64,000 nucleotides of DNA from positions 11,285 through 75,284 of the forward strand of contig JAFXPH010000007.1 of the NCBI GenBank assembly GCA_017528085.1. The letters run 5' to 3'. Shown piece by piece: positions 16,520 through 43,294 of the stretch; the first letter of the stretch is position 1; every line of letters begins with the position of its first letter. The position numbers and the translations under genes were made by a program. Below the pieces are notes generated by a model, which was given only the letters and a program-made list of their open reading frames with translations, was not told the origin of the DNA and did no database searches. Source of the stretch: Clostridia bacterium (GTDB lineage: Bacteria > Bacillota > Clostridia > TANB77 > CAG-508).

Positions 16520-16528
16520 GAGAATAAT

Positions 16529-19469: not shown

Positions 19470-19505
19470 AATAGTTAAGGGTTTCATTTAATGAAACCCT
19501 TTTGT

Positions 19506-19534: not shown

Positions 19535-19597
19535 AATAAGGCTTTTTAAGCACTTATACGTATGATGCATATTGCATAGAATGTAGAGGAGGAATGT

Positions 19598-19774: not shown

Positions 19775-19895
19775 TCATATGATCCTCAAACGTTAAGCGG
19801 TTAACGCTTAAAAAAGGAACCCAGCGAGGTTCCTTTTATTTTTTTATTTATAAAAATTAAAAAAAATAGCCGATTTTTTAAAAACCGGCTTAGTT

Positions 19896-19971
19896 TGGTT
19901 GCGGAGGTAAGACTCGAACTTACGACCTCTGGGTTATGAGCCCAACGAGCTGCCAACTGCTCTACTCCGCG
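19896..19971 (-). tRNA. Initiator tRNA-fMet (anticodon CAT)
   Basis: The reverse complement is CGCGGAG...CTCCGCAACCA, with a C1:A72 mismatch, three G:C pairs closing the anticodon stem (GGG-CTCATAA-CCC) and T-loop TTCGAGT; 76 nt. Confidence 0.88.
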
Positions 19972-20093
19972 GTATTTCTTAGTACATGAGTTATTATAGT
20001 ACACAGAAGCCAAGATGTCAAGGATTTTATTAAATTTATTAGTTAAAAGGCTTCAAAATTAGCTCTAAAACGATGCACATAAACTCCGAAAAT

Positions 20094-20122
20094 TTGCAAT
20101 TATGTTAATAATATGGTATAAT
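20094..20122 (+). promoter_or_regulatory. Strong promoter TTGCAA-17-TATAAT with TG extension, driving pilin paralog 1
   Basis: ttgcaa (20094..20099), a 17-nt spacer, then tggtataat. Confidence 0.6.
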
Positions 20123-20552
20123 TAGTTAAGTGTAAGTAAAGGAGGATTCTTTATTATGTTAAAAAAATCAATTAAAGTGGCTATCGTATTAGCTATGGTT
20201 ATAATGATGGTATCTGTGCTTACAGGAGACACAATTGCTATGACAATAAGTGGAGCTAAAGATACAAAATTTTCAGGCGCACAAGATACATCAGGTGCAG
20301 CTAGTTCTTTAAATACATTAATTGGTGCAGCAATCACAATCGTACAAGTTGTTGGTTCTGGTGTTGCAGTAGTTATGCTTATTGTTCTAGCTATTAAATA
20401 TATTTCAGCAGCTCCTAGCGACAAAGCTGAAATTAAGAAACATGCCGTAGTATACGTAGTTGGTGCTATCGTATTATTCGCTGCTTCTGGTATTTTAGGA
20501 ATTGTAAAACAATTCTCAAATTCAGTTAAAGCTTCAAATGAATAATGATAGA
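20117..20552 (+). repeat. Direct repeat copy 1 (promoter -10, RBS and pilin gene)
   Basis: Aligns with 20737..21172 at a 620-bp offset. The 3' ~260 nt are nearly identical; the signal-peptide part has diverged. Confidence 0.85.
20156..20545 (+). CDS. VirB2/TrbC/Maff2-like two-helix pilin candidate, paralog 1
   Basis: RBS aaaggagg and a signal peptide, then two hydrophobic helices joined by the loop IKYISAAPSDKAEIKKH. The gene has its own promoter and terminator. Confidence 0.65.
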   Translation: MLKKSIKVAIVLAMVIMMVSVLTGDTIAMTISGAKDTKFSGAQDTSGAASSLNTLIGAAITIVQVVGSGVAVVMLIVLAIKYISAAPSDKAEIKKHAVVYVVGAIVLFAASGILGIVKQFSNSVKASNE

Positions 20553-20586
20553 CAAAAGTATGTAAATTTGTTAATTAATAAAAGGA

Positions 20587-20622
20587 AAGCTATTCTTTTG
20601 TTGAATAGCTTTTCTTTTTTTA
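20587..20622 (+). terminator. Terminator after pilin 1
   Basis: aaagctattc/gaatagcttt hairpin plus T-run. Confidence 0.7.
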
Positions 20623-20736
20623 TATTTTTGTAAAGTAAATATAATAAAAAAAATATTTACAAAAAAAATATAATGTGTTATTATCAAATTATGAATAATA
20701 AGCTTAATGGTCGTATACTTTATAATATAAAATTAG

Positions 20737-21172
20737 TATAATGAGTTAAGTGTAAGTAAAGGAGGATTCTTTATTATGTTAAAAAGATCAATTAGAATAG
20801 CTATCGTGTTAGCTCTAGCTGTTGTTATGATTTCAGTATTAGCTGGAAACACATTTGCTATGACAAGAAGTGGAGCTACAGATACAAAATTCTCAAACGC
20901 ATCAGATACATCAGGTGCAGCTAGTTCTTTAAATACATTAATTGGTGCAGCAATCACAATCGTACAAGTTGTTGGTTCTGGTGTTGCAGTAGTTATGCTT
21001 ATCGTATTAGCTATTAAATATATTTCAGCAGCTCCTAGCGATAAAGCTGAAATTAAGAAACACGCTGTAGTATACGTAGTTGGTGCTATCGTATTATTCG
21101 CTGCTTCTGGTATTTTAGGAATTGTAAAACAATTCTCAAATTCAGTTAAAGCTTCAAATGAATAATGATAAT
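20737..21172 (+). repeat. Direct repeat copy 2
   Basis: See 20117..20552. Confidence 0.85.
20776..21165 (+). CDS. Pilin candidate, paralog 2
   Basis: The C-terminal 87 aa (DTSGAASSLNT...VKASNE) are identical to paralog 1. The signal peptide differs. Confidence 0.65.
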   Translation: MLKRSIRIAIVLALAVVMISVLAGNTFAMTRSGATDTKFSNASDTSGAASSLNTLIGAAITIVQVVGSGVAVVMLIVLAIKYISAAPSDKAEIKKHAVVYVVGAIVLFAASGILGIVKQFSNSVKASNE

Positions 21173-21188
21173 GAATCAAAAAATATAA

Positions 21189-21220
21189 AAAGTTGGAAAT
21201 TTATTTCCAACTTTTTTTCT
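21189..21220 (+). terminator. Terminator after pilin 2
   Basis: agttggaaat/atttccaact hairpin plus T-run. Confidence 0.7.
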
Positions 21221-21301
21221 TTTTCTATTTATTTTTTGATTTTTGTGATAAAATGTTTGTAATTGATAATAGAAATACATTTGTATAAAAGCCTCAAATC
21301 G

Positions 21302-21330
21302 TTGACTTTTAGGTAAAAATATGAGATAAT
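21302..21330 (+). promoter_or_regulatory. Promoter TTGACT-17-GATAAT with TG extension, upstream of pilin paralogs 3-7
   Basis: ttgact (21302..21307), a 17-nt spacer, then tgagataat. Confidence 0.55.
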
Positions 21331-21374
21331 TATAATAAGGAGAGGTTTAGGTTTTTGCAAAGGAGGAAATCATT

Positions 21375-21746
21375 ATGAGTAAAAAAATTATTAAAGCAAT
21401 GTTAGTATTACTACTTTTATTATTCTGTAGCACTTTTATATATACATGTTCTGCTGCTAATTTTAGTATTACAGGTACAGTTACAAAAATTGAAGGTAAA
21501 CCCAATAATAATTTAAATTCTAAAGCAACAAATATTATGGGTGCTGCTGTTGGAATTGTTAAAGTAGTTGCTGCTGGTATTGCTGTTATTATGCTATTAG
21601 TTTTAGCAATGAAATATATGTTAGCTGCTCCTAGTGATAGAGCAGAGATCAAAAAACACGCAGTTGTTTATGTTGCTGGTGCATTTATAATGTTTGGTGT
21701 AGCAGGAATATTACAAGCAATTCAAACTTTCTCAAGCAATTTATAG
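21375..21746 (+). CDS. Pilin candidate, paralog 3
   Basis: Signal peptide (...TCSA/AN) and the loop MKYMLAAPSDRAEIKKH between two hydrophobic helices. Confidence 0.62.
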   Translation: MSKKIIKAMLVLLLLLFCSTFIYTCSAANFSITGTVTKIEGKPNNNLNSKATNIMGAAVGIVKVVAAGIAVIMLLVLAMKYMLAAPSDRAEIKKHAVVYVAGAFIMFGVAGILQAIQTFSSNL

Positions 21747-21829
21747 GCTAAGAATAACTTGTGTTTTAAGAATTTAGTTATTAATTTTTAAATAATATAT
21801 TACTACAAAAGAAATGGAGGATTAGTATT

Positions 21830-22201
21830 ATGAGAAGAATTATTAAAAATGTTAGTATAGTGCTATTATTGTTAGTTATTTTAAGTTCAATAATAACAGT
21901 TACTTATGCAGCAACACAAATGAGTATTCCAATTGATGGAGTTATTTCTGCAGGAAGTGGTGCAAAAGGTGCTTCTTCTGTTAAAACTGTAATGGGTGGT
22001 GCAGTCGTTATTGCTCAAGTAATTGCAGCTGGTGTTGCAGTTATTATGCTATTGGTTTTAGCAATGAAATATATGTCAGCAGCTCCTGGTGAAAAAGCTG
22101 AGATCAAAAAACATGCTGTTATATATGTAGTTGGTGCTATTATTATGTTTGCTGTAACAGGTATTCTAGAAATTATTAAACAATTTGCATCAAATATATA
22201 A
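21830..22201 (+). CDS. Pilin candidate, paralog 4
   Basis: Signal peptide (...VTYA/AT) and the loop MKYMSAAPGEKAEIKKH. Confidence 0.62.
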   Translation: MRRIIKNVSIVLLLLVILSSIITVTYAATQMSIPIDGVISAGSGAKGASSVKTVMGGAVVIAQVIAAGVAVIMLLVLAMKYMSAAPGEKAEIKKHAVIYVVGAIIMFAVTGILEIIKQFASNI

Positions 22202-22253
22202 CAAAGAACTATTCAGTTAGTTTGATTAAATATGTTGATGAAGGGATACACTT

Positions 22254-22634
22254 ATGAATAAAAAAACTTTTAAAATATTCGTAAAAATATTTTGTGTTTT
22301 AGCATTGATAGTTTTAATTTCTGGTAATCATCTATTTGTATTTGGTGCAGACAATTTCAAACCTAGCAGTTTTGATGGAAAAACAAATACTAAGATGGAA
22401 ACAGGAATTGTTACTGGATTTGGTGCTGCATTAGGAGTTATTAGAGTTGTCGGTACAGGTATAGCTATGATTGGATTGCTAATAATTGCTATTAGATATA
22501 TGGTTGCTTCACCTGGACAAAGAGCCGATTACAAGAAAAACTTAATTGGATTCACAATTGGAGCATTTATTCTAATTGCTGCATCACAAATTTTAGGTAT
22601 TATTTCTGATTTATCTAATGATGTTATGAAATAA
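22254..22634 (+). CDS. Pilin candidate, paralog 5
   Basis: Signal peptide and the loop IRYMVASPGQRADYKKN. Confidence 0.6.
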   Translation: MNKKTFKIFVKIFCVLALIVLISGNHLFVFGADNFKPSSFDGKTNTKMETGIVTGFGAALGVIRVVGTGIAMIGLLIIAIRYMVASPGQRADYKKNLIGFTIGAFILIAASQILGIISDLSNDVMK

Positions 22635-22672
22635 TAAAACTTAGAATAATACAAAATAGTATGGAGAATAGT

Positions 22673-23093
22673 ATGAAAAAAGGATTAACAATTAATAAAA
22701 TAATAATTGCTATTATAATTGTTCTAATTATGTCTTTTGCTATACAAGGAAATGTATATGCTGCTAACGTACCTGGAGCTGGTGGCGGTGGCGGTGGCCG
22801 GAGGAGGACCATTAAGTAAGTTTAATGGGACAATCAAAGGCGCTAGTGGCGCAAAATCAGGAATAGAGACATTATTGGGAACTGTTTTAACAGGCGTTAG
22901 ACTTGTTGGAGCTGGTTTAGCAATTTGTATTTTATCTTATGTAGGAATTAAATATATGCTTGCTTCAGCTGGTGAGAGAGCTGAACTAAAAAATTACATG
23001 TTAAGATATGTAATAGGTGCTGTTATATTAATTTCAGGGACATTTATTGTTACTGAATTGATCAAACTAGCTCAAAGTATAACAGGTACTTAA
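22673..23093 (+). pseudogene. Pilin candidate, paralog 6, split by a +1 frameshift in a GGT/GGC glycine tract
   Basis: The signal peptide MKKGLTINKIIIAIIIVLIMSFAIQGNVYA/AN...GGGGGG is in one frame (22673..22819, stop TAA). The mature two-helix domain (loop IKYMLASAGERAELKNY) is in the frame of the listed ORF 22737..23093. Deleting one c in ggtggccgg would restore a single ORF. Confidence 0.6.
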
Positions 23094-23131
23094 TTTAAGA
23101 GTAAAAATCAATTTGAAAGTGAAGGAAAGCT

Positions 23132-23521
23132 ATGAAAAGTTTTATTAAAAAAACAAGTATAGTTCTAGCATTATTACTTGTTGTTATAATTGTCTTTAAT
23201 AATAGCGTTTATGCTGCTAAAACTGTATCTAGCCTAATAGGCAGTGCTACATGGAACAAAGTAAAACAAGGTGACCAAGGTACTAATGGTATTACAGATG
23301 CTTTAAATACTATATTGGGTATAGTTCAGATAGCTGGTACAGGTATTGCTCTTATTAGTATTACTTTGACTGGTATCAGATATATGCTAGCATCTGTTGA
23401 AGATAAAGCGCAAACAAAAAAATATTTAGTAGGTGCTTTGATAGGATCTTTACTTCTATTTGGTGGAATAGGAATTATGAAGATTATTCAAAACGTTACT
23501 ACTACTGCATTTAAGAACTAA
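23132..23521 (+). CDS. Pilin candidate, paralog 7
   Basis: Signal peptide (...SVYA/AK) and the loop IRYMLASVEDKAQTKKY. Confidence 0.6.
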   Translation: MKSFIKKTSIVLALLLVVIIVFNNSVYAAKTVSSLIGSATWNKVKQGDQGTNGITDALNTILGIVQIAGTGIALISITLTGIRYMLASVEDKAQTKKYLVGALIGSLLLFGGIGIMKIIQNVTTTAFKN

Positions 23522-23609
23522 CAAAAATAATTAAAAAAATAGAAAAAGAAAGTAGGCAATTTTGTCTACTTTTTTTGCATTTTTTTACATTACAATTGTG
23601 TTAAAAATA

Positions 23610-23638
23610 TTGAAAAGAATAAATTTTATACATATAAT
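23610..23638 (+). promoter_or_regulatory. Near-consensus promoter TTGAAA-17-TATAAT for the machinery operon
   Basis: ttgaaa (23610..23615), a 17-nt spacer, tataat (23633..23638). A weak hairpin plus T-run follows pilin 7 at about 23550..23580. Confidence 0.6.
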
Positions 23639-23681
23639 TATGTAAGAGAATCTATAATTAGGTGGAAAGGCGGAAAAATCC

Positions 23682-24056
23682 ATGAAAACAAAGATTTTTA
23701 AGTTATTAATAGTAGTGATTATTTTAGGTATTGCTTTTAGTGTGCCAGCACGTGCTGCAACACTAACTTCTATGGCAGGAAAGGCAAAAACTTTCTTGAG
23801 TAAAGGCGCAGGAGCAGATATTAATACTTCAAAATTAGAAACTGAATTTGCAGACTTAGGTGCAATTTTAACAACGATAGGCGCTGGTATATTACTAATT
23901 GCTACAGCATATATGGGTATTAGATATTTTATGGCAAATCCTGAAGAGCAAGCCAGACTAAAAACTCAATTGGTTGGACTTGCAGTTTCTGCGGTTGTAG
24001 TATTCGGTGCAGTTTCTATTTGGAGACTAACAGTTGGAATATTTAAAGATATGTAG
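23682..24056 (+). CDS. Pilin candidate, paralog 8 (first gene of the machinery operon)
   Basis: Signal peptide (...PARA/AT) and the loop IRYFMANPEEQARLKTQ between two hydrophobic helices. Confidence 0.58.
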   Translation: MKTKIFKLLIVVIILGIAFSVPARAATLTSMAGKAKTFLSKGAGADINTSKLETEFADLGAILTTIGAGILLIATAYMGIRYFMANPEEQARLKTQLVGLAVSAVVVFGAVSIWRLTVGIFKDM

Positions 24057-24064
24057 GGGGAAAT

Positions 24065-24400
24065 ATGGGAACTTATTATATACCAAGAAACTATAAGGGT
24101 GAGTCAAGAATTTTATATATATTTACAGTCAAATCTCTAATTACTACAGCAGTTGGAGCAATGATAGGATCAATATTCTTATTGATATTTATGTCACTTA
24201 ACATGAAGCCAGTAGGAATTGGATTTATGGCTGTATTTGCTTTGTTTGGATGGGGATTTGGTGCTATCAAAATCCCAACTATAAATGGTCTTCCTGTTAC
24301 AAAGAAAATCGGTGGAGAACCAATAAGTGAGATTATAACAAGGCTTATAAAGTTTAAGAAAATAAGAAAGATGTATACATATATTAAGGAGGATAAGTAG
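24065..24400 (+). CDS. PrgI-family / VirB3-like small membrane protein
   Basis: 111 aa. The N-terminus YYIPRNYKGESRILYIFTVKSL is followed by two TM helices, the layout of Gram-positive PrgI-family proteins that precede VirB4. There is an 8-nt gap to the upstream gene. Confidence 0.6.
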   Translation: MGTYYIPRNYKGESRILYIFTVKSLITTAVGAMIGSIFLLIFMSLNMKPVGIGFMAVFALFGWGFGAIKIPTINGLPVTKKIGGEPISEIITRLIKFKKIRKMYTYIKEDK

Positions 24401-24402
24401 GC

Positions 24403-25683
24403 ATGAGTCCAGCAGAGAAAGCTCAATTATTAGATATGGGAGCCATAGCATTGGTGTTCGTAGTAATTTTACTAGGACTTTATTTCTTTTATTTAAACAG
24501 CAAGAAACCACAAAAGAAACAAAGAAATGAAGGAAAAGATTCAGTATCAGAAGACCAAGATCAAGGCGAGAAGAAAAAAGTTGAAGAATATGGAAGATTC
24601 CAAGGTGTATTAACAAGAGAATCAATTAAAGAATTTATGGAATTTGATGAAATTGTTGATAACATGATTGTTAGAAAGAACAGAGATCAATATATCATGG
24701 TTTTACAATGTAATGGTGTAAACTATGACTTAATGAGTGAACAAGAAAAGATATCTGTTGAGCAAGGTTTCGTGCAATTCTTAAATACATTAAGATTTCC
24801 AATTCAACTTTATATCCAAAGTAGAACTTTAAACTTAGTTGATATTATTGCTGAGTATAAAGCAAGGATAGATGAGTTTAATGAAGAAGTTCATAAGTTG
24901 GACGCAAAAATTCAAGATGCAATCAACAAAGGTAATAGAGCACTACAAGAAAAATTAGAATTTGAAAGAAGAAGAAAACTTAACGTTCTTGAATATGGAT
25001 ACAGTATTACAGACTATGTTGAAAAATTAGGATCTAATAAAAATATCCTACAACAAAAGACATATGTTGTTGTTTCATATTATGCTAGTGAAATTGGTGT
25101 AGGAACAGATAAATATTCTAAAGAAGAATTATATAATATGTGTTTCTCTGAGCTATATACAAGATGTCAAAATATTTCAAGTGCACTTAATACTTCACAA
25201 GTAACATGTAGTATCTTAGATTCAGAACAATTAGCAGAACTTCTTTATATTGCATACAACAGAGATGAGTCAGAGGTATTACAACTATCTAAGATGGTTA
25301 ATGCTCAATACGATTCATTATATAGCTCAGGAAAAGATGTACTAGATAAGAAGAAGGAAAAATTAGATAGAGAGATCAGTATTGACGCAATAGATGTTGC
25401 AACAGCAAGTTTATTAAAAGCAGATAAATTAAGACAACTTGAAATACTAGATCAACAAATGGAAAAGAATAAGAGAGTTGAAGAGAAGGCTCTTGAGCTA
25501 TTAGATACATATTCTAATCAGTTAGATGGTAGGGTATATGACATAGCTAAAAGCGAAGTAAAGAAGACTATAAAGAAAAGACAAGATGAAGAAGCAGCAA
25601 AAAATGGAACTGCACCAGCGGGAGACGCTAAAGCAGAAACAACTAAGAGAATCATTAGAAAAAAATCTGATTCAGAAGAATAA
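24403..25683 (+). CDS. Membrane-anchored protein with a VirB4-N-terminal-domain-like segment and no NTPase motifs
   Basis: One TM (IALVFVVILLGLYFFYL), a charged linker, then LQCNGVNYDLMSEQEKISVEQGFVQFLNTLRFPIQLY, which recalls the CagE/TrbE/VirB4 N-domain pattern G-x-D/N-x-x-L-x-S/T-x-x-E...L. No Walker A or B; C-terminal coiled coil. Confidence 0.4.
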   Translation: MSPAEKAQLLDMGAIALVFVVILLGLYFFYLNSKKPQKKQRNEGKDSVSEDQDQGEKKKVEEYGRFQGVLTRESIKEFMEFDEIVDNMIVRKNRDQYIMVLQCNGVNYDLMSEQEKISVEQGFVQFLNTLRFPIQLYIQSRTLNLVDIIAEYKARIDEFNEEVHKLDAKIQDAINKGNRALQEKLEFERRRKLNVLEYGYSITDYVEKLGSNKNILQQKTYVVVSYYASEIGVGTDKYSKEELYNMCFSELYTRCQNISSALNTSQVTCSILDSEQLAELLYIAYNRDESEVLQLSKMVNAQYDSLYSSGKDVLDKKKEKLDREISIDAIDVATASLLKADKLRQLEILDQQMEKNKRVEEKALELLDTYSNQLDGRVYDIAKSEVKKTIKKRQDEEAAKNGTAPAGDAKAETTKRIIRKKSDSEE

Positions 25684-25698
25684 TACGGAGGACAAGAG

Positions 25699-27696
25699 AT
25701 GTTTGGTAAAAAAGAAGAAGTTACAAGCGAACTTGAAGTAAAAGAGCCGGAAGTAAGTGGATTAAAGAAAAATGAAAGTTCATTTAAAGATTTAATTGCT
25801 CCTGGTGGAATCGATTGTAGTTACACAAACCACATTGAAATTTCATCAATGAGAACTAGATATGCAAGAAGCATGATAGTAGCAAATCTTCCAAGAATGT
25901 GTACTTTCCCAGAATTCTTAAGAGGACTATATACATTTGGAGATATAAACGTTTCGGTATTCATTAATCCAGTAAGTGAATCATCATCACAAACGGATTT
26001 AAATAGAACTATCAATGAAATCGAATCAGAAAGAATTGTAGCTATAGACAGAGGTGATATCAACCGTGAAAGAATCCTAGCACAAAAGAGAGAAGAAGCT
26101 GAGGAACTTCGTGATGGTATCGCAGCTGGTTTCAATAAATTATATGATTCTACAATAGTTGGAACATTATTTGCATACAGTATGGATGAACTTGATAAAT
26201 ATACTGAGTTACTTACAAACGAAATGGCAAAAGGCCTAATTGATATTAAACCAGCTTGGGCAATCCAAGAAGCAGCATTTAGAACTAACATGCCATTCTG
26301 TGATAATAAATTAAATAAAGCTCATACATTTGATAGAAATGCGATGTCAACAGTATTCCCATTCTTCGTATCAGATGTTGGACATGAGCAAGGTATTCCA
26401 CTAGGATTTAATAAACAAACTGGACTACCAATTCTATACGATAACTTCAGTTCTAAACTAACAAATTATAACATGGTTATATTTGGTAAGTCTGGTGCTG
26501 GTAAATCTGTTACAATCAAAACTATTACAGCAAGATCTGCAGTTTTGATGGGAATTGAATCATTAGCACTTGATGCTGAAGGTGAGTACGGTGTAGTTGC
26601 TGAATCACTTGGTGGTGTTAACGTAGTATTAAGCCCTAACTCAAAAACAGTTATCAATGTTTTCGATATAGAGCCAGAAAATGTTAAAGATGAAATTACA
26701 GGAAAAGAAAGAACTGTTCTTTCAGTAGAGAATAAAGTTGAAGACGTTACACAAGGTTTGTTAACAATGGCTAGAGGTTCTACAAGATCTCAAGAAGTTA
26801 ACGAGCTTACAAAACAAATTATTTCAGAATCAGTTGCAGAAGAATATGCTGCACTTGGTATTACTGATAACGTTGAAAGTTTATATGTAAGAAATGAAAC
26901 TCAAAAAATAAACTTTAATCAACAAGGTTACTTAGGAAGAACAAAGAAAGAGATGCCAACAATTGGATCTTGGTATGCAAGAATTTGTAGAAAGGCTGAA
27001 GAAAATGAGAACCCTGACTACAGATTCCACTTCAGTTACCTAGTAAAGGTTATGAAACAATATGTTAGAAAGTATCAAGGACAAATGGCATACTTCGATG
27101 GACAATCAACATTTGAATTGTTAGAAGGAGTTCCTTTCATTAACATAGATATTTCTCAATTAGAGGAAAGATTTGCTAGACCTTTGGCACAACAAATCAT
27201 GCTTTCATGGGTTTGGGAAAAATATGTTAAGAAAAATTCAGAAGATAAAACAAAAGCTTCTAAGAAAAGAGTTTTAGTTGATGAGGCATGGATGCTTTTA
27301 CCATACCCAGAAGCTGTAGACTTCTTAAATACAATGGCAAGACGTGCCAGAAAAAGAAATGTTTCTCTAGCAGTTATTTCACAAAAATTCCAAGACTTCT
27401 ATGAGAAACAAGAAGTACAAGCAGTTTTAACATCATCTGAAACAAAATTATTCTTAGCACAAGATAAATCAGAGATTGAATACTTAAGAGAAGTATTTAA
27501 ACTTAGTGAAGGTGAGGCAGGATTCTTAATCACATGTAGTAGAGGTGAAGGATTACTTAAAGTTGGTGGAGATTCAGCAATTTTAGCAATTCAACCTACT
27601 AAGAAAGAGTTTGAATTCGTTGAAACTAACCTTACAAAACAAATTGAGATGGAAAGACAAAGACGTGAGGCAGCAGAAAAACAAAATCAAGGATAG
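25699..27696 (+). CDS. VirB4-family T4SS ATPase
   Basis: Gram-positive VirB4-type N-terminus (DLIAPGGID...RYARSMIVANLPR), Walker A GKSGAGKS, Walker B VLVDEAWML, then RKRNVSLAVISQ. No TM segments. Confidence 0.85.
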   Translation: MFGKKEEVTSELEVKEPEVSGLKKNESSFKDLIAPGGIDCSYTNHIEISSMRTRYARSMIVANLPRMCTFPEFLRGLYTFGDINVSVFINPVSESSSQTDLNRTINEIESERIVAIDRGDINRERILAQKREEAEELRDGIAAGFNKLYDSTIVGTLFAYSMDELDKYTELLTNEMAKGLIDIKPAWAIQEAAFRTNMPFCDNKLNKAHTFDRNAMSTVFPFFVSDVGHEQGIPLGFNKQTGLPILYDNFSSKLTNYNMVIFGKSGAGKSVTIKTITARSAVLMGIESLALDAEGEYGVVAESLGGVNVVLSPNSKTVINVFDIEPENVKDEITGKERTVLSVENKVEDVTQGLLTMARGSTRSQEVNELTKQIISESVAEEYAALGITDNVESLYVRNETQKINFNQQGYLGRTKKEMPTIGSWYARICRKAEENENPDYRFHFSYLVKVMKQYVRKYQGQMAYFDGQSTFELLEGVPFINIDISQLEERFARPLAQQIMLSWVWEKYVKKNSEDKTKASKKRVLVDEAWMLLPYPEAVDFLNTMARRARKRNVSLAVISQKFQDFYEKQEVQAVLTSSETKLFLAQDKSEIEYLREVFKLSEGEAGFLITCSRGEGLLKVGGDSAILAIQPTKKEFEFVETNLTKQIEMERQRREAAEKQNQG

Positions 27697-27707: not shown

Positions 27708-28958
27708 ATGTTTAAAAAATTCATTACAAAATTATTTATTTGTATTTTGTTATTTAATTTTATATTTTTAAACTCAGCTTATGTTCCACCTTCTTTTGCA
27801 AGAGAAGATAGCGAACCAACAAAAGAACAAAGAACTTATGCAGAAAATAAAGTTGAAGGCGTTGAAGGAAACACTATTTTTGCTAGTGCAGTTGGTGGCG
27901 AAGGAGATAATAACTCCTATGGTGGAGTTGTTACAACAGTTTTAGCATCAATCTTAGGAATAGTAACATTGTTATTTGATTTAATAGTATTCCAGGTTGA
28001 TATTGCAGCTGGTGTATTAAGTAATACGACAGAAGATATAGCTTCTGAAGGTGGAGGAAGCAGTGAAAAACTAAATTTTTTCTTAACAATAGAGAGAATA
28101 GTTTTCAATAGAATTCCAATCTTTAATGCAAATTATTTTGATACTGAAGATGAATATAAAGTTGGAGAAATAACATTAACATCTTCAAAGTTGGTTAATG
28201 CGATTAAAGAAAATGTTGCAACAGTATATGGATTTACAAGAATTTTAGCAATAGCAGTTGCACTTCTAATGTTAATTTATATTGGTATTAGAATGGCAAT
28301 GTCTACAATTTCAGCAGATCAAGCAAAATATAAGAAAATGTTTATATCATGGGTTGAAAGTATTGTTGTATTATTCTTACTAACATACATAATGGTAGCT
28401 ATTATTACATTTGGTGAGATACTTACTGGAATATTCTCAGATTTAAATAATCAAGTTTCAAAAATGGTTGATGAAACTGGAGCAGAGGTTACTTACAAAG
28501 TTGAAGAAGAGTTAAGACTAGATGTAATAAGAGTTGGATTAAAATCACTAGGTGTAACATTGGTTGCATATTCAATTATTTATTTGGCTTTATTATTCAT
28601 GATATTAAAATTTGGATGGCTATATTTAAAGAGATTCTTCTCAATAGGATTCTTGATTGTTATAGCTCCGCTTATTACAATTACATACTCAATGGATAAA
28701 GCAGGTGATGGTAAAGCACAAGCATTCTCAACATGGACAAGAGAATTCTTAGTTAATGTATTAATACAACCATTACATGCACTAATATATTTAGTATTTA
28801 TAGCATCATGTGCACAAATTGCAAGAGTTGCACCATTCTTATTCTTATTCTTCTTACTAAGTTTAGGAAAAGCAGAACAAATGGTTATGCAAGTATTCGA
28901 CTTAAAGAAGGGATTTGAACTTGGTGGACTAGATAAATTCTTTGGTGGAAAGAAGTAG
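27708..28958 (+). CDS. VirB6/TrbL-like polytopic membrane protein, paralog 1 (core only, no tail)
   Basis: Shares with the three larger paralogs the ecto-motif IVFNRIPIFNANYF, the hairpin GIRMAMSTISADQAKYKKM and the core motif APLITITYSMDKAGDGKAQAFSTWTREF..LIQPLHALIY. Confidence 0.6.
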   Translation: MFKKFITKLFICILLFNFIFLNSAYVPPSFAREDSEPTKEQRTYAENKVEGVEGNTIFASAVGGEGDNNSYGGVVTTVLASILGIVTLLFDLIVFQVDIAAGVLSNTTEDIASEGGGSSEKLNFFLTIERIVFNRIPIFNANYFDTEDEYKVGEITLTSSKLVNAIKENVATVYGFTRILAIAVALLMLIYIGIRMAMSTISADQAKYKKMFISWVESIVVLFLLTYIMVAIITFGEILTGIFSDLNNQVSKMVDETGAEVTYKVEEELRLDVIRVGLKSLGVTLVAYSIIYLALLFMILKFGWLYLKRFFSIGFLIVIAPLITITYSMDKAGDGKAQAFSTWTREFLVNVLIQPLHALIYLVFIASCAQIARVAPFLFLFFLLSLGKAEQMVMQVFDLKKGFELGGLDKFFGGKK

Positions 28959-28959
28959 T

Positions 28960-30213
28960 ATGAAAAAAAACAAAGATAATTCAATTGTTTTAAAAATATT
29001 TGTATTAGTAGCACTTATAGTTTTGATTTTAGTAATAATATTTTTAGGACATGAAAGAAATAGAATATTAAATGAAGAAAATGAAAATATGATTGCAGAG
29101 GAAACTGCTCCAAAAAAAGATTCTGATGAAGAAAAATCATCATATTTATGGATTTTGGAAAAGTATAATGTTAAGTATATAAGAACATTTTACAATAAAA
29201 TATATGTAGAATTTCCAAAGAATCTATATGAAACAGATGGCTCAAGTAATAAATCATATTTTTATGGAATAATTAGAGAAATGGCTGATTATTTTGATCA
29301 GTATTTCTACCTAATAGATGAAAAAAATAATATTGAAATTAGAGTAGTATTAAATAATGATGGTACTTTTAGAGTATTTATAAATGGTATAGAAAACTAT
29401 TATGATAGTTCATCAGGAAAAGATTATGCTGAAATAGAAAATCTTGAAATTGGTGAAAAGAGTAATATGGTACTTCATAGTGATATGTTTTTTACAATGA
29501 CTAGAGAAAAATTCTCTTATAAATCAGTAATAGAAGACTTAGGACCTAAAGATGCTATACCAAGTGAAGATGCAACAGATGAACAATCTATGGAAATAAA
29601 GAAAGCAATTGAACAAGGATATGAATCTTATCAAGGTGGGAAAGCATTAGTAAAACCATTTGGTAGATATAACTATTTTGCTGCAAATTTAGTATTAAAG
29701 AAAGGATCTAACGCACCAAGCTTTTTAAATGTAGAAGATCCATATGATTTAAGACAAGTTGCAGAAAAATATACTGATTACATGGATGGAAGCCCTGAAA
29801 GAGGATTTTTACTATTTAGAACAAATAGAAATTATATCTTCTTCTATAGAGATGAAATATCAATTTATCCATACTATTACTCATTAAACGATACATTTGA
29901 AGAAGCAGTAGAAGGATATACTATGAAAGGTATGGACTTTAGAAATTTTGCATCTTTAATATCAGTAGATTGTAAGACAAGTACAGAATTTGATTTAGAT
30001 TATGAAAATAAAACATTTCATGCAGTATATCCATGCTGCGGATTTGAAATTGATGTTGATGATAATGTAGGAAGATGTAATATAACTATTTACAAAAACT
30101 ACTATGTATCAAATAAAATAAAAGAACTTGCGAAAGCAGGAAAAGTTACAGTAAATTCTAACGTTGATTTACTACAAAAAACAGAAGAAGAAAGACGAGC
30201 TTCAAATAGATAA
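28960..30213 (+). CDS. N-terminally membrane-anchored ectodomain protein (paralog A)
   Basis: The ATG at 28960 lies 1 nt after the upstream stop. It has one TM. The segment NIEIRVVLNNDGTFRVFINGIENYY matches DITVEVKCVNRRISKIIINGLEDYF in the next gene. Confidence 0.5.
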   Translation: MKKNKDNSIVLKIFVLVALIVLILVIIFLGHERNRILNEENENMIAEETAPKKDSDEEKSSYLWILEKYNVKYIRTFYNKIYVEFPKNLYETDGSSNKSYFYGIIREMADYFDQYFYLIDEKNNIEIRVVLNNDGTFRVFINGIENYYDSSSGKDYAEIENLEIGEKSNMVLHSDMFFTMTREKFSYKSVIEDLGPKDAIPSEDATDEQSMEIKKAIEQGYESYQGGKALVKPFGRYNYFAANLVLKKGSNAPSFLNVEDPYDLRQVAEKYTDYMDGSPERGFLLFRTNRNYIFFYRDEISIYPYYYSLNDTFEEAVEGYTMKGMDFRNFASLISVDCKTSTEFDLDYENKTFHAVYPCCGFEIDVDDNVGRCNITIYKNYYVSNKIKELAKAGKVTVNSNVDLLQKTEEERRASNR

Positions 30214-30242
30214 CTATAAAGATTTTGAAGAAAGGATTGCTC

Positions 30243-31766
30243 ATGTCATTAGAACAACTAAAGACTAACAAAATATTTTGGATTACTTCAATAGTAGCTT
30301 TAATCTTAGCCATAATAATAATAAAAATAGCTATGAGTTCAATAACTCCAAAACCTGTTGATGAAGATGGAACAAATCTTTCAGTTCAATCAAGAAGATT
30401 TAAAACAATGAAAGAGTTACTAGAGTACTATGGTTGTACATATATATCTGAAAATATAGCTATGACATTAGAAGGTGAAAAAGAGTTATATTTAAAATTT
30501 AATGTAGATTTATATGCAAATGGCAAGAGCAATGAAGAATTCTTCATGTCACTAATACAGGATGTAGCAAACTTCTATGGCTATTATTCATTTAATATGT
30601 ATGATGCAGATAGAGACATTACTGTTGAAGTTAAATGTGTTAATAGAAGAATTAGTAAGATAATAATAAATGGACTAGAGGATTATTTTAGAAACAGAGA
30701 TGCTATGTTAGCTGAAGGAAAATATGTAGAGTATCCAACAACAACAATGGCTGTAAATTCACAATTATTACAAAGATTGATTGATAACAATTGGTCTAGT
30801 GATGCAGTAGGATTTGGATCTAAAGAGTCTATTTATAACAAATACGATGTATATTATGATGAGGGCATTAAGGTAAGAATTGAAAATGGAAAGGTATATA
30901 ATATAGTCTTTACAGAAAAATACGGTGGAGAGGTTGTTGATGGTATAGTACCAGGAACAGGTATGTCTACTGTAAGAGCAACTATTGGTACACCAGCATT
31001 TGAAGATGGACCAGTAGGTGTAATAGGATACAAGACAAAGAAATATTATGTGTTCTTTTCAGAGAATGAGATATCTGTTTATAGAGTATACGACGCAAGT
31101 ATGGTAGATTTTATAGCTCTATATAGAGATTTTAAAAATGATAATATTGACTTACTAGAATTAATGAACAAACTTACAGAAAAGTGGCCTGATTATGATG
31201 TATATGATTATACTTCTAATTCAGTATTTATATCTTATCCGCTTCAAGGTTTAGATATAAAGATTAATTATGATAATCAAAGAGGAATATTATTCTATAA
31301 TAATTTTAATTATTCAAGGGACACTGTAATGTCTATGGTAGATGCTGATGAAGACTTAGTATCAAAATTAGGTATTGATGGTGTATTTGAAGGAGAAAAA
31401 AGAAGAATTAATACTCTTAAAGATTTGAATAAAAAAGCTGATGAATTTGAAAAAAATTTAGCTATAACAAGCAATTTATATAAATTATACATAGAGAAAG
31501 ACTATGCTGATGTAGGCATAAAAGCATATTTTATTTCTAAAGATGGCTCATTACCAAACAGAGAATTGAATGATACAATTTCTACATTTACTTGGATTAA
31601 TGATACATATTTTGTTTATTCAAAATATGGAAGAGGAATCTACTTATATGATGTATCAAATGGTAGAACTCAAGCTTTAGTTGAAGGTAAACAAGCATTT
31701 GAAATTAAATCATTTGAAAACAAGATACTAAAATATGATGATGATGAAGTCAATTTAGAATTCTAG
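30243..31766 (+). CDS. N-terminally membrane-anchored ectodomain protein (paralog B)
   Basis: I chose the ATG at 30243 (RBS gaaagga) over the listed TTG at 30225. It has one TM and shares its N-domain with 28960..30213. Confidence 0.5.
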   Translation: MSLEQLKTNKIFWITSIVALILAIIIIKIAMSSITPKPVDEDGTNLSVQSRRFKTMKELLEYYGCTYISENIAMTLEGEKELYLKFNVDLYANGKSNEEFFMSLIQDVANFYGYYSFNMYDADRDITVEVKCVNRRISKIIINGLEDYFRNRDAMLAEGKYVEYPTTTMAVNSQLLQRLIDNNWSSDAVGFGSKESIYNKYDVYYDEGIKVRIENGKVYNIVFTEKYGGEVVDGIVPGTGMSTVRATIGTPAFEDGPVGVIGYKTKKYYVFFSENEISVYRVYDASMVDFIALYRDFKNDNIDLLELMNKLTEKWPDYDVYDYTSNSVFISYPLQGLDIKINYDNQRGILFYNNFNYSRDTVMSMVDADEDLVSKLGIDGVFEGEKRRINTLKDLNKKADEFEKNLAITSNLYKLYIEKDYADVGIKAYFISKDGSLPNRELNDTISTFTWINDTYFVYSKYGRGIYLYDVSNGRTQALVEGKQAFEIKSFENKILKYDDDEVNLEF

Positions 31767-31778: not shown

Positions 31779-34700
31779 ATGAAGAGATCTACATTAAAGA
31801 AATTAAAAAGAGTAATTGTGATTTCAATTATTCTCATAGGTTTAATTTATTTAATAGCAGGACCAATTTCATCTGCAGCAGAGCTTCCTAAAAAAGGAGA
31901 GTTTTATTATGCAGGTACATCAAAAGGTTCATATGTTGCAACTGAAAACATATTTAAGTGGCTATTTAATATATTAGCAGAAATAATTCAGTTTATATTC
32001 CAATTAATATTATTCATAATAAGAATGATATTCGTAGGTTGGGCTGCATTAATATCTGAGGCTTTGACAGGAACATTTACAGCAATTACTGGTGTTAAGT
32101 ATGATCCATCTGATGTTGATCAATCTAACATCAATGTTATCAATGTTCAAGATAATATAACAGTTGAAGCTATTGTATTTAACAAAATCCCAATATTTGA
32201 TGTTGATTTCTTTAATTTTGATGAAATGGATCCTGTAACATATACAGATGCTGACAGAAAAGATGCAGGAAAAGCAATTAAAACACCTACAGGTAAAGAC
32301 TTATCAGATATGAGATGTTCAACATGTCAACGTGTTGAATCTATTGGACCACACACTTTTAAACAAGATAAAGAAAAGGGAATATGTGTTTGTAAGGTCG
32401 AAGAGTGTACTTGTAAAGCTTGCGAAACAAGAAGAAACTTGATGGAACCACATGATGAATTTAACCCGATGCAATTGATAAAGACAAACGTAGCTGAATG
32501 GTACTATACAATTAGGTTAATGGCTTTGGTTGGAATGCTTTTAGCATTAGGAGCAATTGGTATTAAAATGGCAATTTCAACTGTGGCATCAGATAAAGCA
32601 CAATATCAGCAAATGCTATCATCATGGGTAGTAGGAATTATATTATTATTTGGTATTCATTACTACATGATTTTAATGATAAATATAAACAATATTTTGA
32701 TTGATACAGTTGTTAATTATTCATCAGAGACATCAAAAGATATTGCTGAAGCAACTGTAAGTGATTTTGGAGTTTCAGCTTCACAATCAGACATGGAAAT
32801 TAATTTATATGAACAAGCAAGAACAAGAGCATACGATCCAAACTTATTAAATGGATTAACAGGTACAATACTTTATTGTACATTAGTATATTTCTCAGTA
32901 AGATTTGCTATTGTATACTTCAAGAGGTATTTTACTATAATGATTTTAGTACTTATGGCTCCTGGTGTTGCACTTACATATGCAATACAAAAAGCATTTT
33001 CAGGTAGAAGTCATACATTATCATTATGGTTACAAGAGTTCTGCGTAAATATTATTATTCAATCAGTTCACGCATTAATTTATGCAGCCTTCTTATCAAC
33101 TGCACTTAGAATTGCGTTTGATTCATTACCAGGAAGTATTTTTGCATTTATTATATTAAACTTTATGCTTAAGGCACTACCAATATTCAGAAAGATATTC
33201 AAAATGAGTAGTGATGGCGGACTATTAGATGATGCTATGAAAGCAGGTAGCCCTGAAAGATTAAAAGCAATGAAAGATTCAGCTGTTGGTGCAGCGTTAG
33301 CAGCTAAACCGTTAGCAAAATCATTTGCTAAATTACCAGGAACAAAAGCTGTAGTAGGATTAGTGAAATCTCCTGTAACAATTGGTGTTGAAGCTCATAG
33401 ACAATCACAGATGAAAAAGTTTGCAAAAGAGCATAATGAAAAAGTAGATCAAGCTAAATTAGATTTAAAAGATATATTTGCTCAAAACACAAAGACTTAT
33501 GGTGAAGGAACAGATGAAGAATTAGCAGAAAGAGCAAATAATGGAAGCTCTGAAGAAATAAGACAACAAGCGTATAAACAATTAAAAGAAAGAAGAGATG
33601 CTATTTCAATGAGAGCAATACAAGGGCTTCCATTAAGTAGTATTAAAACAGATACAAAAGAAGAAGAGACAAATGAAACAGAAGAGACAAATGAAACAGA
33701 GACTAATAAACAAGATCAACTAAATGCTAACTATTCTGCAGTTGGTATGGCAGGAGCTTCAGAAGCTCAAATATTAGAAGCTGCAAGACAAGACTTCTTA
33801 AATAGACATAGCGAAAATGCTCCTAAGGTTAAGCCAGAAAGTATTGTATCTGTAAGTGCTAAGAACTTTGCTAGAAATTTAGGTATGATGGCTGATTTTA
33901 GAAATAAATATGACATTATTTATGATAAAGATATGCATGCTCATTTCAAGAAGAGACATATACCAAAGACACAATATAATAAAAATACTGGAAGATATGA
34001 AGAGACAAGTGCTCATAAACAAATGAGAGAATTATACTCATTAAGGACTGCCTTAGGTGCTTCACCAGAAGAAATGAAAGCACTAAAAACATTCTTGAAA
34101 GATACAACAATTGGTTCATTATCATTCTTTACATGTATAGCTGGTATGGGTACAGTGGTTGCACATCCAAAGATTGGACTTGCCCTATTAGCTACAGGTA
34201 GCCAATATGTTAAATTGTATTCCCAAAATAAGACAATTAGAGGGGTTAATAAAAAGAGAAAAAATAAGGCTTATGCATTTTATGATTATTCTCCTGGAGC
34301 AACATTGGCAATGGGAAAAATAGGTTCTGTTGAAGCATCAATTGTAAGAAGAGAATTTGAGACTTTTATTCAAAAAAATGAAACTAAATCTTTAAGAGAT
34401 GTTGATTTAAAATATAATCTTGGAGCAGTTAGTTCTTCAATGTATGCTGCAGAAGGACAAGAAGGTGGAGAATATGCAACTCAATATTTAAATAGAAAAT
34501 TAAGTGAATTATCTCCAGAAGAACAAATGAATTTATTCCTTAAAACGGACTTTGCAAAGACATTGGAAGCTAGTGATATAGAAGCTGCAAAAGAAGGAGC
34601 TCAAAGAGATTTCTCTGAGGTTCTTGAAAAAGATTACCATGGAAAAATAGAAGAATTCTTTAAAGCTATGAATCAGGCAGAAAAACCAGATGAAATGCCA

Positions 34701-36329: not shown

Positions 36330-36342
36330 AAAGGAATTGGAC

Positions 36343-39000: not shown

Positions 39001-39012
39001 AAAGCTTAAAGA

Positions 39013-41671: not shown

Positions 41672-42187
41672 ATGTCTAGGAACCAAAAATTAATATTGGT
41701 GGTTTCATTAGCAGTTATAGTTCTTGTATTTATTATCAATGGAGTAATTGATAATAGAAACAGAAGACAATTTGATACTGATGAAACTATGTCAGAAGAA
41801 GAGGCTGCTAATCTATTAGCCAAAAAAAATGAAGCTATTGAAGTAAATGTAGCAAAGGGAAAAAATGAAAGAGAAAGAATAGAATACTATGCTCAAAAAT
41901 TCTTTAAAAGTATAGCTACTAAAGATTATGAAGACGCTTATAATGTTTTAAATGGAGCATATAAAGAAAGATATTTCCCAACATTACAAAGCTTTATTGA
42001 CTATTGTGAAGTGTATTTCCCAGGAACTTTGGGAGTTAAATATACTAATATAGAAAGAAATGGAACAACATATGTAATATGGGTTACTATTTCTAATTCA
42101 ACAGGATATTCAAAATCAACAATTGAAAAACAAGTTGTAGTAAAAGAAAATGGTCTAAATGATTATGAAATATCATTTAGTAAATAG
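41672..42187 (+). CDS. Small membrane-anchored ectodomain protein (possible VirB8/TcpC-type NTF2-like module)
   Basis: RBS aaggag and one TM. The segment ERIEYYAQKFFKSIATKDYEDAYNVL resembles the opening helix of NTF2-like lipoprotein domains. The functional call is inference only. Confidence 0.35.
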   Translation: MSRNQKLILVVSLAVIVLVFIINGVIDNRNRRQFDTDETMSEEEAANLLAKKNEAIEVNVAKGKNERERIEYYAQKFFKSIATKDYEDAYNVLNGAYKERYFPTLQSFIDYCEVYFPGTLGVKYTNIERNGTTYVIWVTISNSTGYSKSTIEKQVVVKENGLNDYEISFSK

Positions 42188-42206
42188 AATTGGAAAGGAG
42201 TAACAT

Positions 42207-43172
42207 ATGAATTTTACCGATTTAAGATTAAAAATCCAAAGATTTTTTAGAAGAACTAGGTATATATTTCTAGTAGCAATTATTGGTTTAGCTATATTAG
42301 TAACTTTAAATACAATAGTAAAATATAGACCACAACAAGTGGTTCCGGAGACTAATTTAGATACAAGAGCATCAGTAATGGATCCTAATGTTAAAACACC
42401 GACTCAAGTATCATCTTCAATTGAAGAATTGATATCAATTTATATGGGATATTGTAATAAGAACGACTTTTCTTCAGCATTTGATATGCTATCAGAAAAG
42501 TGCCAACAATATATGTTTCACAATGATATAAACGAATATTTACAATATATGTACACTATTATGCCAACACCAAAAGAATATACAATTCAAAATTATTCAG
42601 ATTTAACAGTTAATGGTAAGACATACTATGTATATCAATTAAAATATTTTGATAACTTAATTGAAACAGGATTAACAAATACAACATATGCATATACAAC
42701 TGAAAAAATCACTTTTGTAAGAGAAGGTGAAGGAAGTTTACAAATGAATGTTGGAAACTTTGTAGATTTTGAAGATATAAAGAGACTTACAGAAGGTGAA
42801 TATTTAAAAATAGATGTTTTAACATCTTTAGTTCAATATAGTACAATTACTTATGAAGTTAAATTTACAAATAGAACTGACAATTATATAGTTATTTCTG
42901 ATAGTAATGAAGATGAAGAGATAACAATTACTTTAAATGAAGAAACAAGACATCCAGTTGAAAGACCAGATATTATATTAGAGCCACATGAATCAAAAAC
43001 TGTAAGTATACAATTTACAAAATTCTTTGATGACTCTGATCCTGTAACTGCTATTTCATTCCCAAATATTAGAGTAATGACTAAGTATTCAGGAAATGAA
43101 GCTGGTGAAGAAGTAATAAGAGAAGAGATAAATAATGCAGAAGCAAAATTAGGTATGTCAGTTGGATTATAA
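42207..43172 (+). CDS. Membrane-anchored ectodomain protein (possible VirB8/TcpC-type)
   Basis: RBS aaaggag and one TM. The opening helix IEELISIYMGYCNKNDFSSAFDML is similar to that of the previous gene; the rest is beta-rich. Confidence 0.35.
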   Translation: MNFTDLRLKIQRFFRRTRYIFLVAIIGLAILVTLNTIVKYRPQQVVPETNLDTRASVMDPNVKTPTQVSSSIEELISIYMGYCNKNDFSSAFDMLSEKCQQYMFHNDINEYLQYMYTIMPTPKEYTIQNYSDLTVNGKTYYVYQLKYFDNLIETGLTNTTYAYTTEKITFVREGEGSLQMNVGNFVDFEDIKRLTEGEYLKIDVLTSLVQYSTITYEVKFTNRTDNYIVISDSNEDEEITITLNEETRHPVERPDIILEPHESKTVSIQFTKFFDDSDPVTAISFPNIRVMTKYSGNEAGEEVIREEINNAEAKLGMSVGL

Positions 43173-43230: not shown

Positions 43231-43294
43231 GATAGACTTTATATTAAAAATGATATAAAATATATTTGTAAAAATGGATGAAAGGAGTGAAATT

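Follow-up and report, generated by a model that had tools for sequence, protein, structure and literature searches.

A tandem array of predicted VirB2-family pilin genes upstream of a candidate relaxase-less type IV secretion system in an uncultured gut Clostridia bacterium

The pilin array

The DNA analysed here is a 64-kb stretch, called the window below, of contig JAFXPH010000007.1 from the metagenome-assembled genome of a Clostridia bacterium. Between positions 20156 and 24056 it carries eight open reading frames (ORFs) of 118–129 amino acids (aa), all on the + strand, which the ORF listing places exactly where an earlier note on this DNA had reported eight tandem paralogs. We refer to these copies as c1 to c8, in array order; judged from sequence profiles and genomic position, they are members of the VirB2 family of type IV secretion system (T4SS) pilins (Pfam T4SS_pilin). 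Aligned with MAFFT, the copies are 19–53% identical in pairwise comparisons, with the exception of c1 and c2, which are 88% identical. The array is far beyond what chance would produce, with Pfam E-values of 1e-8 to 5e-5 per copy and conservation in dozens of species.

The alignment reveals a common plan: a basic N-terminus, a hydrophobic stretch with an A-x-A-like end, a variable hydrophilic segment of 16–35 residues, and two long hydrophobic helices with the loop KY[IM]xAAPxDKAEIKKH (consensus) between them. A short, positively charged loop between two long hydrophobic helices is a trait of the VirB2 class that the copies have; a heuristic count gives two hydrophobic segments per mature protein. 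A heuristic n/h/c-region analysis returned n-regions of +3/+4, h-regions of 13–22 residues and A-x-A-like sites at residues 25–31, compatible with Sec/signal peptidase I cleavage for all copies, the signal peptide of c6 being out of frame. The order set out in the earlier note, in which a putative signal peptide comes first, then a variable segment and then a helical hairpin, is borne out, except that the note gave every ORF a signal peptide and the 118-aa c6 ORF has none. The loop motif proposed there is exact in six of the eight copies, with two mismatches in c5 and three in c8. An AlphaFold2 model of c1, made from an 85-member family alignment, has a helix at residues 2–23, a disordered region at 24–47, and hairpin helices at 48–84 and 87–127 connected by a 2-residue turn; the hairpin is predicted with a pLDDT > 90.

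Consensus scans, the only basis for the transcription units given here, predict c1, c2, c3–c7, and c8 together with the downstream machine genes as separate units. The first copy, c1 (129 aa, 20156..20545; PF18895 35.5 bits), lies downstream of a promoter-like site at 20093..20122 (10/12 consensus matches, extended TG), is followed by a terminator-like hairpin at 20580–20618, and is predicted to be monocistronic. Its recent duplicate c2 (129 aa, 20776..21165; 35.5 bits) has a duplicated equivalent of the c1 promoter-like site at 20656–20684 and a terminator-like hairpin at 21187–21216, and the duplication unit reaches ~50 nucleotides (nt) upstream of the start codon. Another promoter-like site (21302–21330) stands before c3 (123 aa, 21375..21746; 27.1 bits), which opens a block continued by c4 (123 aa, 21830..22201; 30.3 bits), c5 (126 aa, 22254..22634; 28.3 bits), and a frameshifted c6 (22661..23093; hairpin ORF 34.7 bits). 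The block is closed by c7 (129 aa, 23132..23521) and a terminator-like hairpin at 23545–23576. The last copy, c8 (124 aa, 23682..24056; 31.5 bits), which we regard as the 'core' pilin, follows a promoter-like site at 23610–23638, and the terminator scan found no terminator between it and the machine genes. It also weakly matches NCBIfam NF045849, a pilin-like protein of a Mycoplasma integrative and conjugative element (ICE), at E 0.004, below the curated cut-off.

A 31-nt AT-rich inverted repeat, 87% complementary, flanks the c3–c7 block (21216–21246 and 23521–23551). It has no recombinase near it and may be a chance product of AT-rich spacers. Being the sole notable inverted repeat, it was the only candidate for phase variation through an invertible promoter, an idea that we set aside. 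A scan of the window for riboswitches and other RNA elements returned tRNAs only.

The signal peptide and the hairpin of c6 lie in different frames, the first in an ORF at 22661–22819 and the second in the 118-aa ORF at 22737–23093 (+1 frame); deletion of one C yields a 143-aa pilin. What splits the gene is a 43-nt GC-rich insertion at ~22766–22808, coding for a poly-Gly run, (GGTGGC)3 C GGAGGAGGA. The c6 ortholog of a sister strain, L009 (6429–6848), is intact and without the insertion, and all eight copies are intact in that lineage. The identical frameshift occurs in six metagenome contigs that are independent of each other, one with single-nucleotide polymorphisms nearby, so it is real and cannot be put down to assembly. 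Although it is fixed in the six contigs, the hairpin ORF shows no degradation so far. From its sequence, c6 would be either a recent pseudogene or the product of frameshifting expression.

All eight copies match PF18895 (T4SS_pilin), seven of them above its gathering score of 26.6 bits. Every member of the 85-member family alignment matches the same model at E<=0.01, and at that threshold 49 of the 85 also match PF04956 (TrbC/VirB2; best E 3e-14); 16 match DUF2976 and one matches CagC. A profile search of 5.8 billion proteins returned 180 relatives, most with PF18895 and many with PF04956, one of them carrying the JGI name 'VirB2 component (pilin)'. Almost none of the NCBI-sourced homologs among cluster members is named. 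When 1.84 billion cluster representatives were searched exhaustively with a hidden Markov model (HMM), 6752 relatives passed E<=1e-3, and 4382 of these passed E<=1e-10. The VirB2/TrbC assignment made in the earlier note is thus borne out at the profile level, as well as by the position of the array directly upstream of VirB3-like, TrsD-like, VirB4 and VirB6-like genes. The 'Maff2-like' label given alongside it has to be dropped: Maff2 (PF12750) was matched by none of the eight copies at E<=1 and was absent from the families of the 85 relatives. Four relatives, P0247 (450 aa), P0248, P0249 and P0349 (1147 aa), have 3–11 pilin-hairpin stretches per polypeptide; either these are genuine fusions or the gene calls read through, as could happen in genomes with an alternative genetic code.

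The downstream genes and the distribution of the locus

The genes that follow c8 are all on the + strand. A VirB3-like small membrane protein (24065..24400) matches PF12666 PrgI weakly (E 0.01) and is found at the same position, with 40–78% identity, in all related loci. Next is a 426-aa TrsD/TraC-like protein (24403..25683; precomputed PF26593 TraC-like), homologous to the N-terminal part of VirB4, and then a 665-aa VirB4-type ATPase (25699..27696). The ATPase matches NF045971 (VirB4-like, CD1110 family) at 5.3e-61 and TIGR00929 (VirB4_CagE) at 7e-21, has P-loop_TraG, DUF87 and AAA_10 matches, and retains an intact Walker A (GKSGAGKS) and Walker B (VLVDEAW). Its best NCBIfam models are those of the Firmicutes CD1110 family and the Mycoplasma ICE VirB4. 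Positions 102–338 of the profile NF045975 (VirB4_plasma) correspond to the TrsD-like protein and 340–889 to the 665-aa ATPase; the two match Mycoplasma ICE models at 1.2e-52, below the curated cut-offs. From this profile coverage VirB4 appears to be split into two genes, matching the pairing of TrsD and VirB4 in pGO1 and in Patescibacteria. VirB4 also has weak NCBIfam matches to CedB and CedD (E ~1e-6), far below the family cut-offs.

A polytopic membrane protein of 416 aa (27708..28958; AlphaFold2 pLDDT 79.5) follows. When its model was searched against the PDB with Foldseek, the top five hits were R388 TrwI/VirB6, at E 0.05–0.3 and target-normalised TM scores <=0.52, which makes a VirB6 identity suggestive only; no Pfam domain or name occurs among 779 relatives of this protein. 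It has an embedded pilin-like hairpin, and hhalign aligned the pilin profile to the VirB6-like N-domain over 78 columns with 90% probability (E 1.6e-6), indicating a homologous hairpin. Three larger VirB6-like paralogs of 1516, 887 and 870 aa fill 31779..41625 (31779–36329, 36337–39000 and 39013–41625). Their N-domains are 29–34% identical to the 416-aa protein, and they end in charged, low-complexity C-terminal tails of 450–1000 aa. The four paralogs share the motifs FNKIP..D.DFF and APLITITYS.DK, and VirB6-like proteins here have weak NCBIfam matches to Mycoplasma ICE conjugal transfer membrane proteins. The Rickettsiales rvh system likewise has a tandem set of several extended VirB6 paralogs, a parallel to the four found here.

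Between the 416-aa protein and its larger paralogs are two paralogous bitopic proteins of 423 and 513 aa (28942..31766; 28942–30213 and 30225–31766), each with an N-terminal transmembrane (TM) helix and a large extracytoplasmic domain. They share a Y/F-rich domain after the TM helix and have no family in Pfam or NCBIfam; the 513-aa type is present in many related loci. Size and topology, and nothing else, make candidates for VirB8-like components of two small bitopic proteins of 171 and 321 aa (41672..43172), which have no significant family. A membrane-anchored peptidoglycan hydrolase (43274..44764) with G5 (PF07501, 1.2e-12) and glucosaminidase (PF01832, 2.4e-13) domains is, by its domain content, the predicted functional counterpart of VirB1.

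Chromosomal housekeeping genes flank the cluster (FeFe hydrogenase, LCP, PBP5, choline-binding repeats, NadE, cardiolipin synthase, Hsp33), and the envelope and housekeeping genes among them point to a wall-bearing, monoderm anaerobic host. The monoderm host proposed in the earlier note agrees with these envelope genes and with the labels of related records, Clostridia or Candidatus Scatovivens. Two flanking ORFs are worth recording. In a 437-aa ORF (11744–13057), an NAD synthase (NadE) domain stands together with a cytidylyltransferase-like (NadD-type) one, and two enzymes of the NAD pathway thus appear to be fused. A 627-aa ORF on the minus strand (14035–15918), upstream of the array, ends in a SWIM-like CxCx(n)CxH motif (…DCTCPCTTLCKHEYA…) and matches no family; we considered it as a conserved partner of the array and rejected it, as it is present only in same-strain contigs.

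To survey related loci, we scanned a VirB4 alignment against one genome per GTDB species. This species-level scan gave 480 VirB4 relatives, the best 80 of which are 71–88% identical and nearly all labelled as uncultured Clostridia; several of these 80 bear the name Candidatus Scatovivens, and a circular chromosome of 1.8 Mb is among them. Scatovivens belongs to the GTDB order TANB77, family CAG-508, a lineage that is nearly all uncultured (PMC13106387). The locus is present in at least 80 species-level gut Clostridia genomes and was also seen in ruminant-gut metagenomes. Across the ~80 related loci compared, the order pilins–PrgI–TrsD–VirB4–VirB6 is kept, so that the pilins are encoded with VirB4 and inner-membrane T4SS components, as is typical of the VirB2 class, both there and in the window. 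The flanking genes vary between species yet are always housekeeping genes. Two more distant species depart from the order, with 4–5 shorter pilins ~9 kb downstream of VirB4 instead of upstream (L083, 19247–20794; L088, 14605–16404).

Pilin number was counted in 60 loci with a complete upstream region. It ranges from 0 to 8, with two or more pilins in 53 of the 60 and 6–8 in close relatives; loci whose VirB4 is >=83% identical average 6.7 pilins, the remaining loci 3.1. The last, PrgI-proximal pilin is of the c8 type in essentially all related loci, single-pilin loci included, while in close relatives the penultimate one is of the c7 type and the first of the c1/2 type. One strain contig (L004, 6539–9819) has a single c1/c2-type gene and therefore seven copies in all.

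Sequence variation and a proposed surface filament

In sets of orthologs of the c8 type (n=56) and of the c1/2 type (n=42), column entropy is 2.3–3.0 bits in the C-terminal tail and at the N-terminal end of the mature protein, vs. 0.4–1.5 bits in the hairpin. The earlier note had placed the variation in the N-terminal segment and described the hairpin as conserved; both statements hold, and the C-terminal tail, which it did not mention, is variable as well. The same contrast separates c1 from c2: hairpin codons 47–129 differ by no nonsynonymous and six synonymous changes, the variable segment by six nonsynonymous and one synonymous.

The comparison of the window with L009 extends this to the level of strains. 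Over window positions 16000–32000, nucleotide identity forms a trough over the pilin array, with flanks at 94–98%. VirB4 is identical at all 665 of 665 aa (97.9% nt), the PrgI-like gene is 97.9% and the flanking NUDIX gene 96.4% identical in nt, whereas c3–c7 are 72–81% identical in nt and 66–75% in aa (the aa figure without c6), c8 is 89% and c1/c2 are 90–91% identical in nt. VirB6a and the two bitopic proteins are at ~90%, vs. 96–98% for VirB4, TrsD and PrgI, so extracytoplasmic parts of the machine seem to evolve faster. For the variable segment the pooled ratio of nonsynonymous to synonymous divergence (dN/dS) comes to 0.48, for the hairpin to 0.21 and for VirB4 to 0.01. In the pilins dS often exceeds that of VirB4 several-fold, a sign that alleles have been replaced or have recombined, or are old and balanced, rather than that the genes simply diverged in place. 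An invariant VirB4 beside hypervariable pilins points to the filament surface as a target of diversifying pressure in the gut. The suggestion in the earlier note that the copies are antigenic or receptor-specificity variants gains some support from the divergence trough.

We propose that the eight genes encode VirB2-family subunits of a chromosomal, relaxase-less, MPF_FATA-like T4SS in an uncultured gut Clostridia bacterium, a reading that we consider probable though well short of assured. VirB2 proteins expose the two ends of the chain outside the membrane and keep the basic loop on the inner side. Each precursor would be inserted by Sec and cut by signal peptidase I, giving a membrane hairpin of ~95–115 aa with its termini outside and its K/R-rich loop inside. 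Subunits might then be pulled from the membrane by VirB4 with the TrsD-like and VirB3-like partners and, on a VirB6-like platform, assemble into a polymeric pilus or tube across the peptidoglycan, which the G5-glucosaminidase would open locally. Because c8 is predicted to be co-transcribed with the machine and occurs in nearly every relative, it is the likely core subunit; c1 and c2, each with its own predicted promoter and terminator, and the predicted c3–c7 operon would supply alternative or accessory subunits. With their exposed N- and C-terminal tails these could vary the surface of the filament, whether for target specificity or for escape from phage or host immunoglobulin A. Our best guess at a function, by analogy with what has been proposed for the Patescibacteria T4SS and archaeal Ced, is contact-dependent exchange or uptake.

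Several results weigh against this proposal. At the family level, c7 scores 23.6 bits against PF18895, under the gathering score (its 135 bits against an HMM made from the eight copies were obtained with c7 itself included), and none of the eight copies reaches the whole-protein gathering score of PF04956, 27.9 bits: c6 comes closest at 24.9 bits (E 2.3e-5), c5 follows at E 0.064, and the other copies have no match. Strict PF04956 membership of the eight copies is thus lacking, while superfamily kinship with TrbC/VirB2 is backed by the 49 of 85 relatives that match. Foldseek with the c1 model found no significant VirB2, TraA or CedA1 pilin match in the PDB, the best E being 2.7 and the hits generic hairpins; since a two-helix hairpin carries too little 3Di information, this neither backs nor counters VirB2 kinship. 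A sequence-profile search of the PDB with the 85-member alignment gave nothing relevant, only designed transmembrane proteins at E>0.01. At the level of function, the formation of a pilus by the subunits, and their exit from the membrane, are proposals drawn from gene content. With c6 disrupted, the array as encoded cannot yield eight functional copies. In the variable segment the pooled dN/dS stays below 1, so the trough may reflect recombination or relaxed constraint and not positive selection. Finally, the negative result for relaxase and coupling-protein genes covers 64 kb, and either could be encoded elsewhere in the genome; a type IV coupling protein (T4CP) does lie near plasmid-borne relatives of this VirB4.

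The VirB2 homologs might instead be confined to the envelope as parts of a channel or stalk, making no extracellular pilus, with the paralogs reflecting sub-functionalisation within the machine. The hairpin shared with the VirB6-like proteins would suit a module used as a membrane-embedded building block, and no adhesin or VirB5-like tip protein was identified, yet in the pilins it is the termini, predicted to lie outside the membrane, that evolve fastest. VirB2 in Gram-negative systems is required for substrate transfer even without a pilus (PMC12857230), while an array that is a hotspot of strain-level divergence next to a nearly invariant machine is what would be expected of a surface structure meeting phages, antibodies or partner cells, and not of buried parts of a channel. 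The predicted monocistronic c1 and c2, with a promoter and terminator each, also resemble highly expressed major structural subunits. On balance we regard an envelope-confined role as unlikely.

It is more doubtful that the cluster is the mating-pair-formation module of an ICE, active or decaying, whose subunits form a conjugative pilus and whose relaxase, T4CP and integrase lie outside the window or have been lost; we consider this quite improbable. VirB4 is the signature of conjugative T4SSs, and the nearest annotated relatives of this one, at 38–39% identity, are on large plasmids of C. beijerinckii and C. botulinum, one of which has a 1001-aa TraM-recognition/TrwB-type T4CP and integrases nearby. 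The plasmid ORFs at the equivalent upstream position (136–138 aa), however, match PF18895 below threshold (E 0.0013) or not at all, and tblastn of c1 and a repaired c6 against 72,556 plasmids returned no match. Although tRNA genes flank the cluster, with tRNA-Met (19896–19971), tRNA-Cys (46327–46401) and tRNA-Gly (46420–46495), all on the minus strand, bracketing the + strand T4SS genes, the 3′ end of tRNA-Met faces away from the cluster, that of tRNA-Cys is not repeated, and no att-like repeat was found. T4CP genes in Patescibacteria are often far from virB4 (PMC12102498), but no relaxase, T4CP, integrase or replication gene was found by Pfam and NCBIfam in any scanned ORF of the window, so that the defining parts of an ICE, including border att repeats, are absent from these 64 kb. 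The GC content of the cluster equals that of its flanks. The locus is intact and syntenic in the species-level genomes described above, and the VirB4 dN/dS between close strains fits a host function maintained by vertical descent, where a decaying element would look different. With relaxase, coupling protein and integrase missing nearby and the locus apparently inherited vertically, it is probably not a conjugation apparatus.

The idea that the array encodes unrelated small membrane proteins resembling a helical hairpin (holins or bacteriocin immunity proteins, both named in the earlier note, or leader-peptide bacteriocins) draws on how generic the two-helix fold is, as Foldseek hits such as ATP synthase subunit c illustrate, and is effectively refuted by Pfam matches specific to T4SS_pilin and TrbC with no holin or immunity family among them, by the place directly upstream of PrgI–TrsD–VirB4–VirB6 kept in at least 80 species, and by the lack of any lysin, bacteriocin or dedicated ABC exporter module adjoining the array.

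Implications and comparison with known systems

Monoderm bacteria were described as lacking VirB2 homologs by Guglielmini et al. 2014 (PMC4027160), and a FEMS review of December 2025 states that VirB2 and VirB5 are absent from Gram-positive T4SSs except those of Patescibacteria, whose system it calls unique among monoderms in its potential for conjugative-type pili (PMC12857230). The statement in the earlier note that monoderm T4SSs are described as lacking VirB2 agrees with both sources, Patescibacteria being the published exception (PMC12102498). A full-text literature search found no paper on a VirB2 pilin array of this kind in Bacillota. The locus described here would widen the host range of T4SS pilin arrays to that phylum and contradict the current generalisation that Gram-positives have no VirB2. 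A survey of Patescibacteria left open whether their pilins were inherited with the MPF_FATA ancestor or co-opted later by the Patescibacteria T4SS (PMC12102498); the present locus bears on whether VirB2-like pilins were already in the T4SS that reached Patescibacteria, and makes their origin testable. It also adds a second lineage for studying how a VirB2 filament gets through a thick wall, one that is common in animal guts and has far larger cells than the candidate phyla radiation (CPR).

A bolder possibility, which we hold only tentatively and think doubtful as it stands, is that this small-genome, almost entirely uncultured order of gut Clostridia (TANB77/CAG-508-like) has as a whole retained, as a core organelle encoded on the chromosome, a relaxase-less T4SS of the Patescibacteria type, with a surface-variable VirB2 pilus passing through the thick Gram-positive wall. 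If true, T4SS pili would reach beyond diderms, archaea and CPR, and the CPR system, pilins included, would probably be shared with or acquired from Bacillota. These Clostridia might then need pilus-mediated cell contact, for DNA or nutrient uptake or for effector delivery, which could explain their resistance to cultivation.

Among established systems, the conjugative T4SSs of Gram-positives (pCF10 Prg/Pcf, pIP501 Tra, pGO1 Trs, CTn2; MPF_FATA) share with this locus a PrgI-type VirB3, a TrsD-type protein, the VirB4 matched by the CD1110 model, a polytopic VirB6-like protein and a membrane-anchored peptidoglycan hydrolase. They differ in having a T4CP, a relaxase and surface adhesins and no VirB2 (PMC4027160, PMC12857230), whereas here pilins are present and T4CP and relaxase are absent from the locus. 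The Mycoplasma ICE has, by NCBIfam names, the same gene order in a monoderm, Mbov_0395 (pilin-like)–Mbov_0396 (TM)–Mbov_0397 (VirB4). It is, in contrast, a mobile ICE with a single pilin-like gene, and all matches to it here are far below curated cut-offs.

Archaeal Ced/Ted DNA import systems (PMC9905601) resemble the system predicted for the locus in having a VirB2-like pilus, built by a VirB4-like ATPase and a VirB6-like protein, with no outer membrane, relaxase or T4CP. There is no pilin array in Ced/Ted, the similarity is far below family cut-offs, and no gene in the present locus indicates DNA import. Tandem amplification and diversification of VirB2 by a conserved T4SS, read as antigenic or receptor variation, is known from Rickettsiales and Bartonella (Anaplasma phagocytophilum, Bartonella Trw; PMC12102498). 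Those are diderm MPF_T effector systems with an outer-membrane core and a T4CP, and sequence kinship with them exists only at the level of the VirB2 superfamily.

The closest known system is the relaxase-less chromosomal T4SS of Patescibacteria with its VirB2 arrays. The survey of that group counted 441 arrays of 2–11 VirB2-like pilins, beside PrgI, TrsD, VirB4 and VirB6 and mostly without a relaxase (PMC12102498). The hosts differ, being ultrasmall CPR epibionts there and a Bacillota/Clostridia bacterium with wall-teichoic-type envelope genes here. Four VirB6-like paralogs, three with very long C-terminal tails, and a VirB1-like hydrolase set the present locus apart, and the pilins of CPR arrays are at most 54% identical, vs. 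the one pair at 88% here. In Ca. Southlakia epibionticum ML1 and Ca. Nanosynbacter lyticus TM7x (PMC12102498), as in the window, tandem divergent VirB2-like pilins matching PF18895/PF04956, 2–11 there and eight here, adjoin genes for PrgI/VirB3, TrsD (the VirB4 N-terminal homolog), VirB4 and VirB6, and on this comparison of gene sets both loci are chromosomal, belong to monoderms and have no relaxase nearby.

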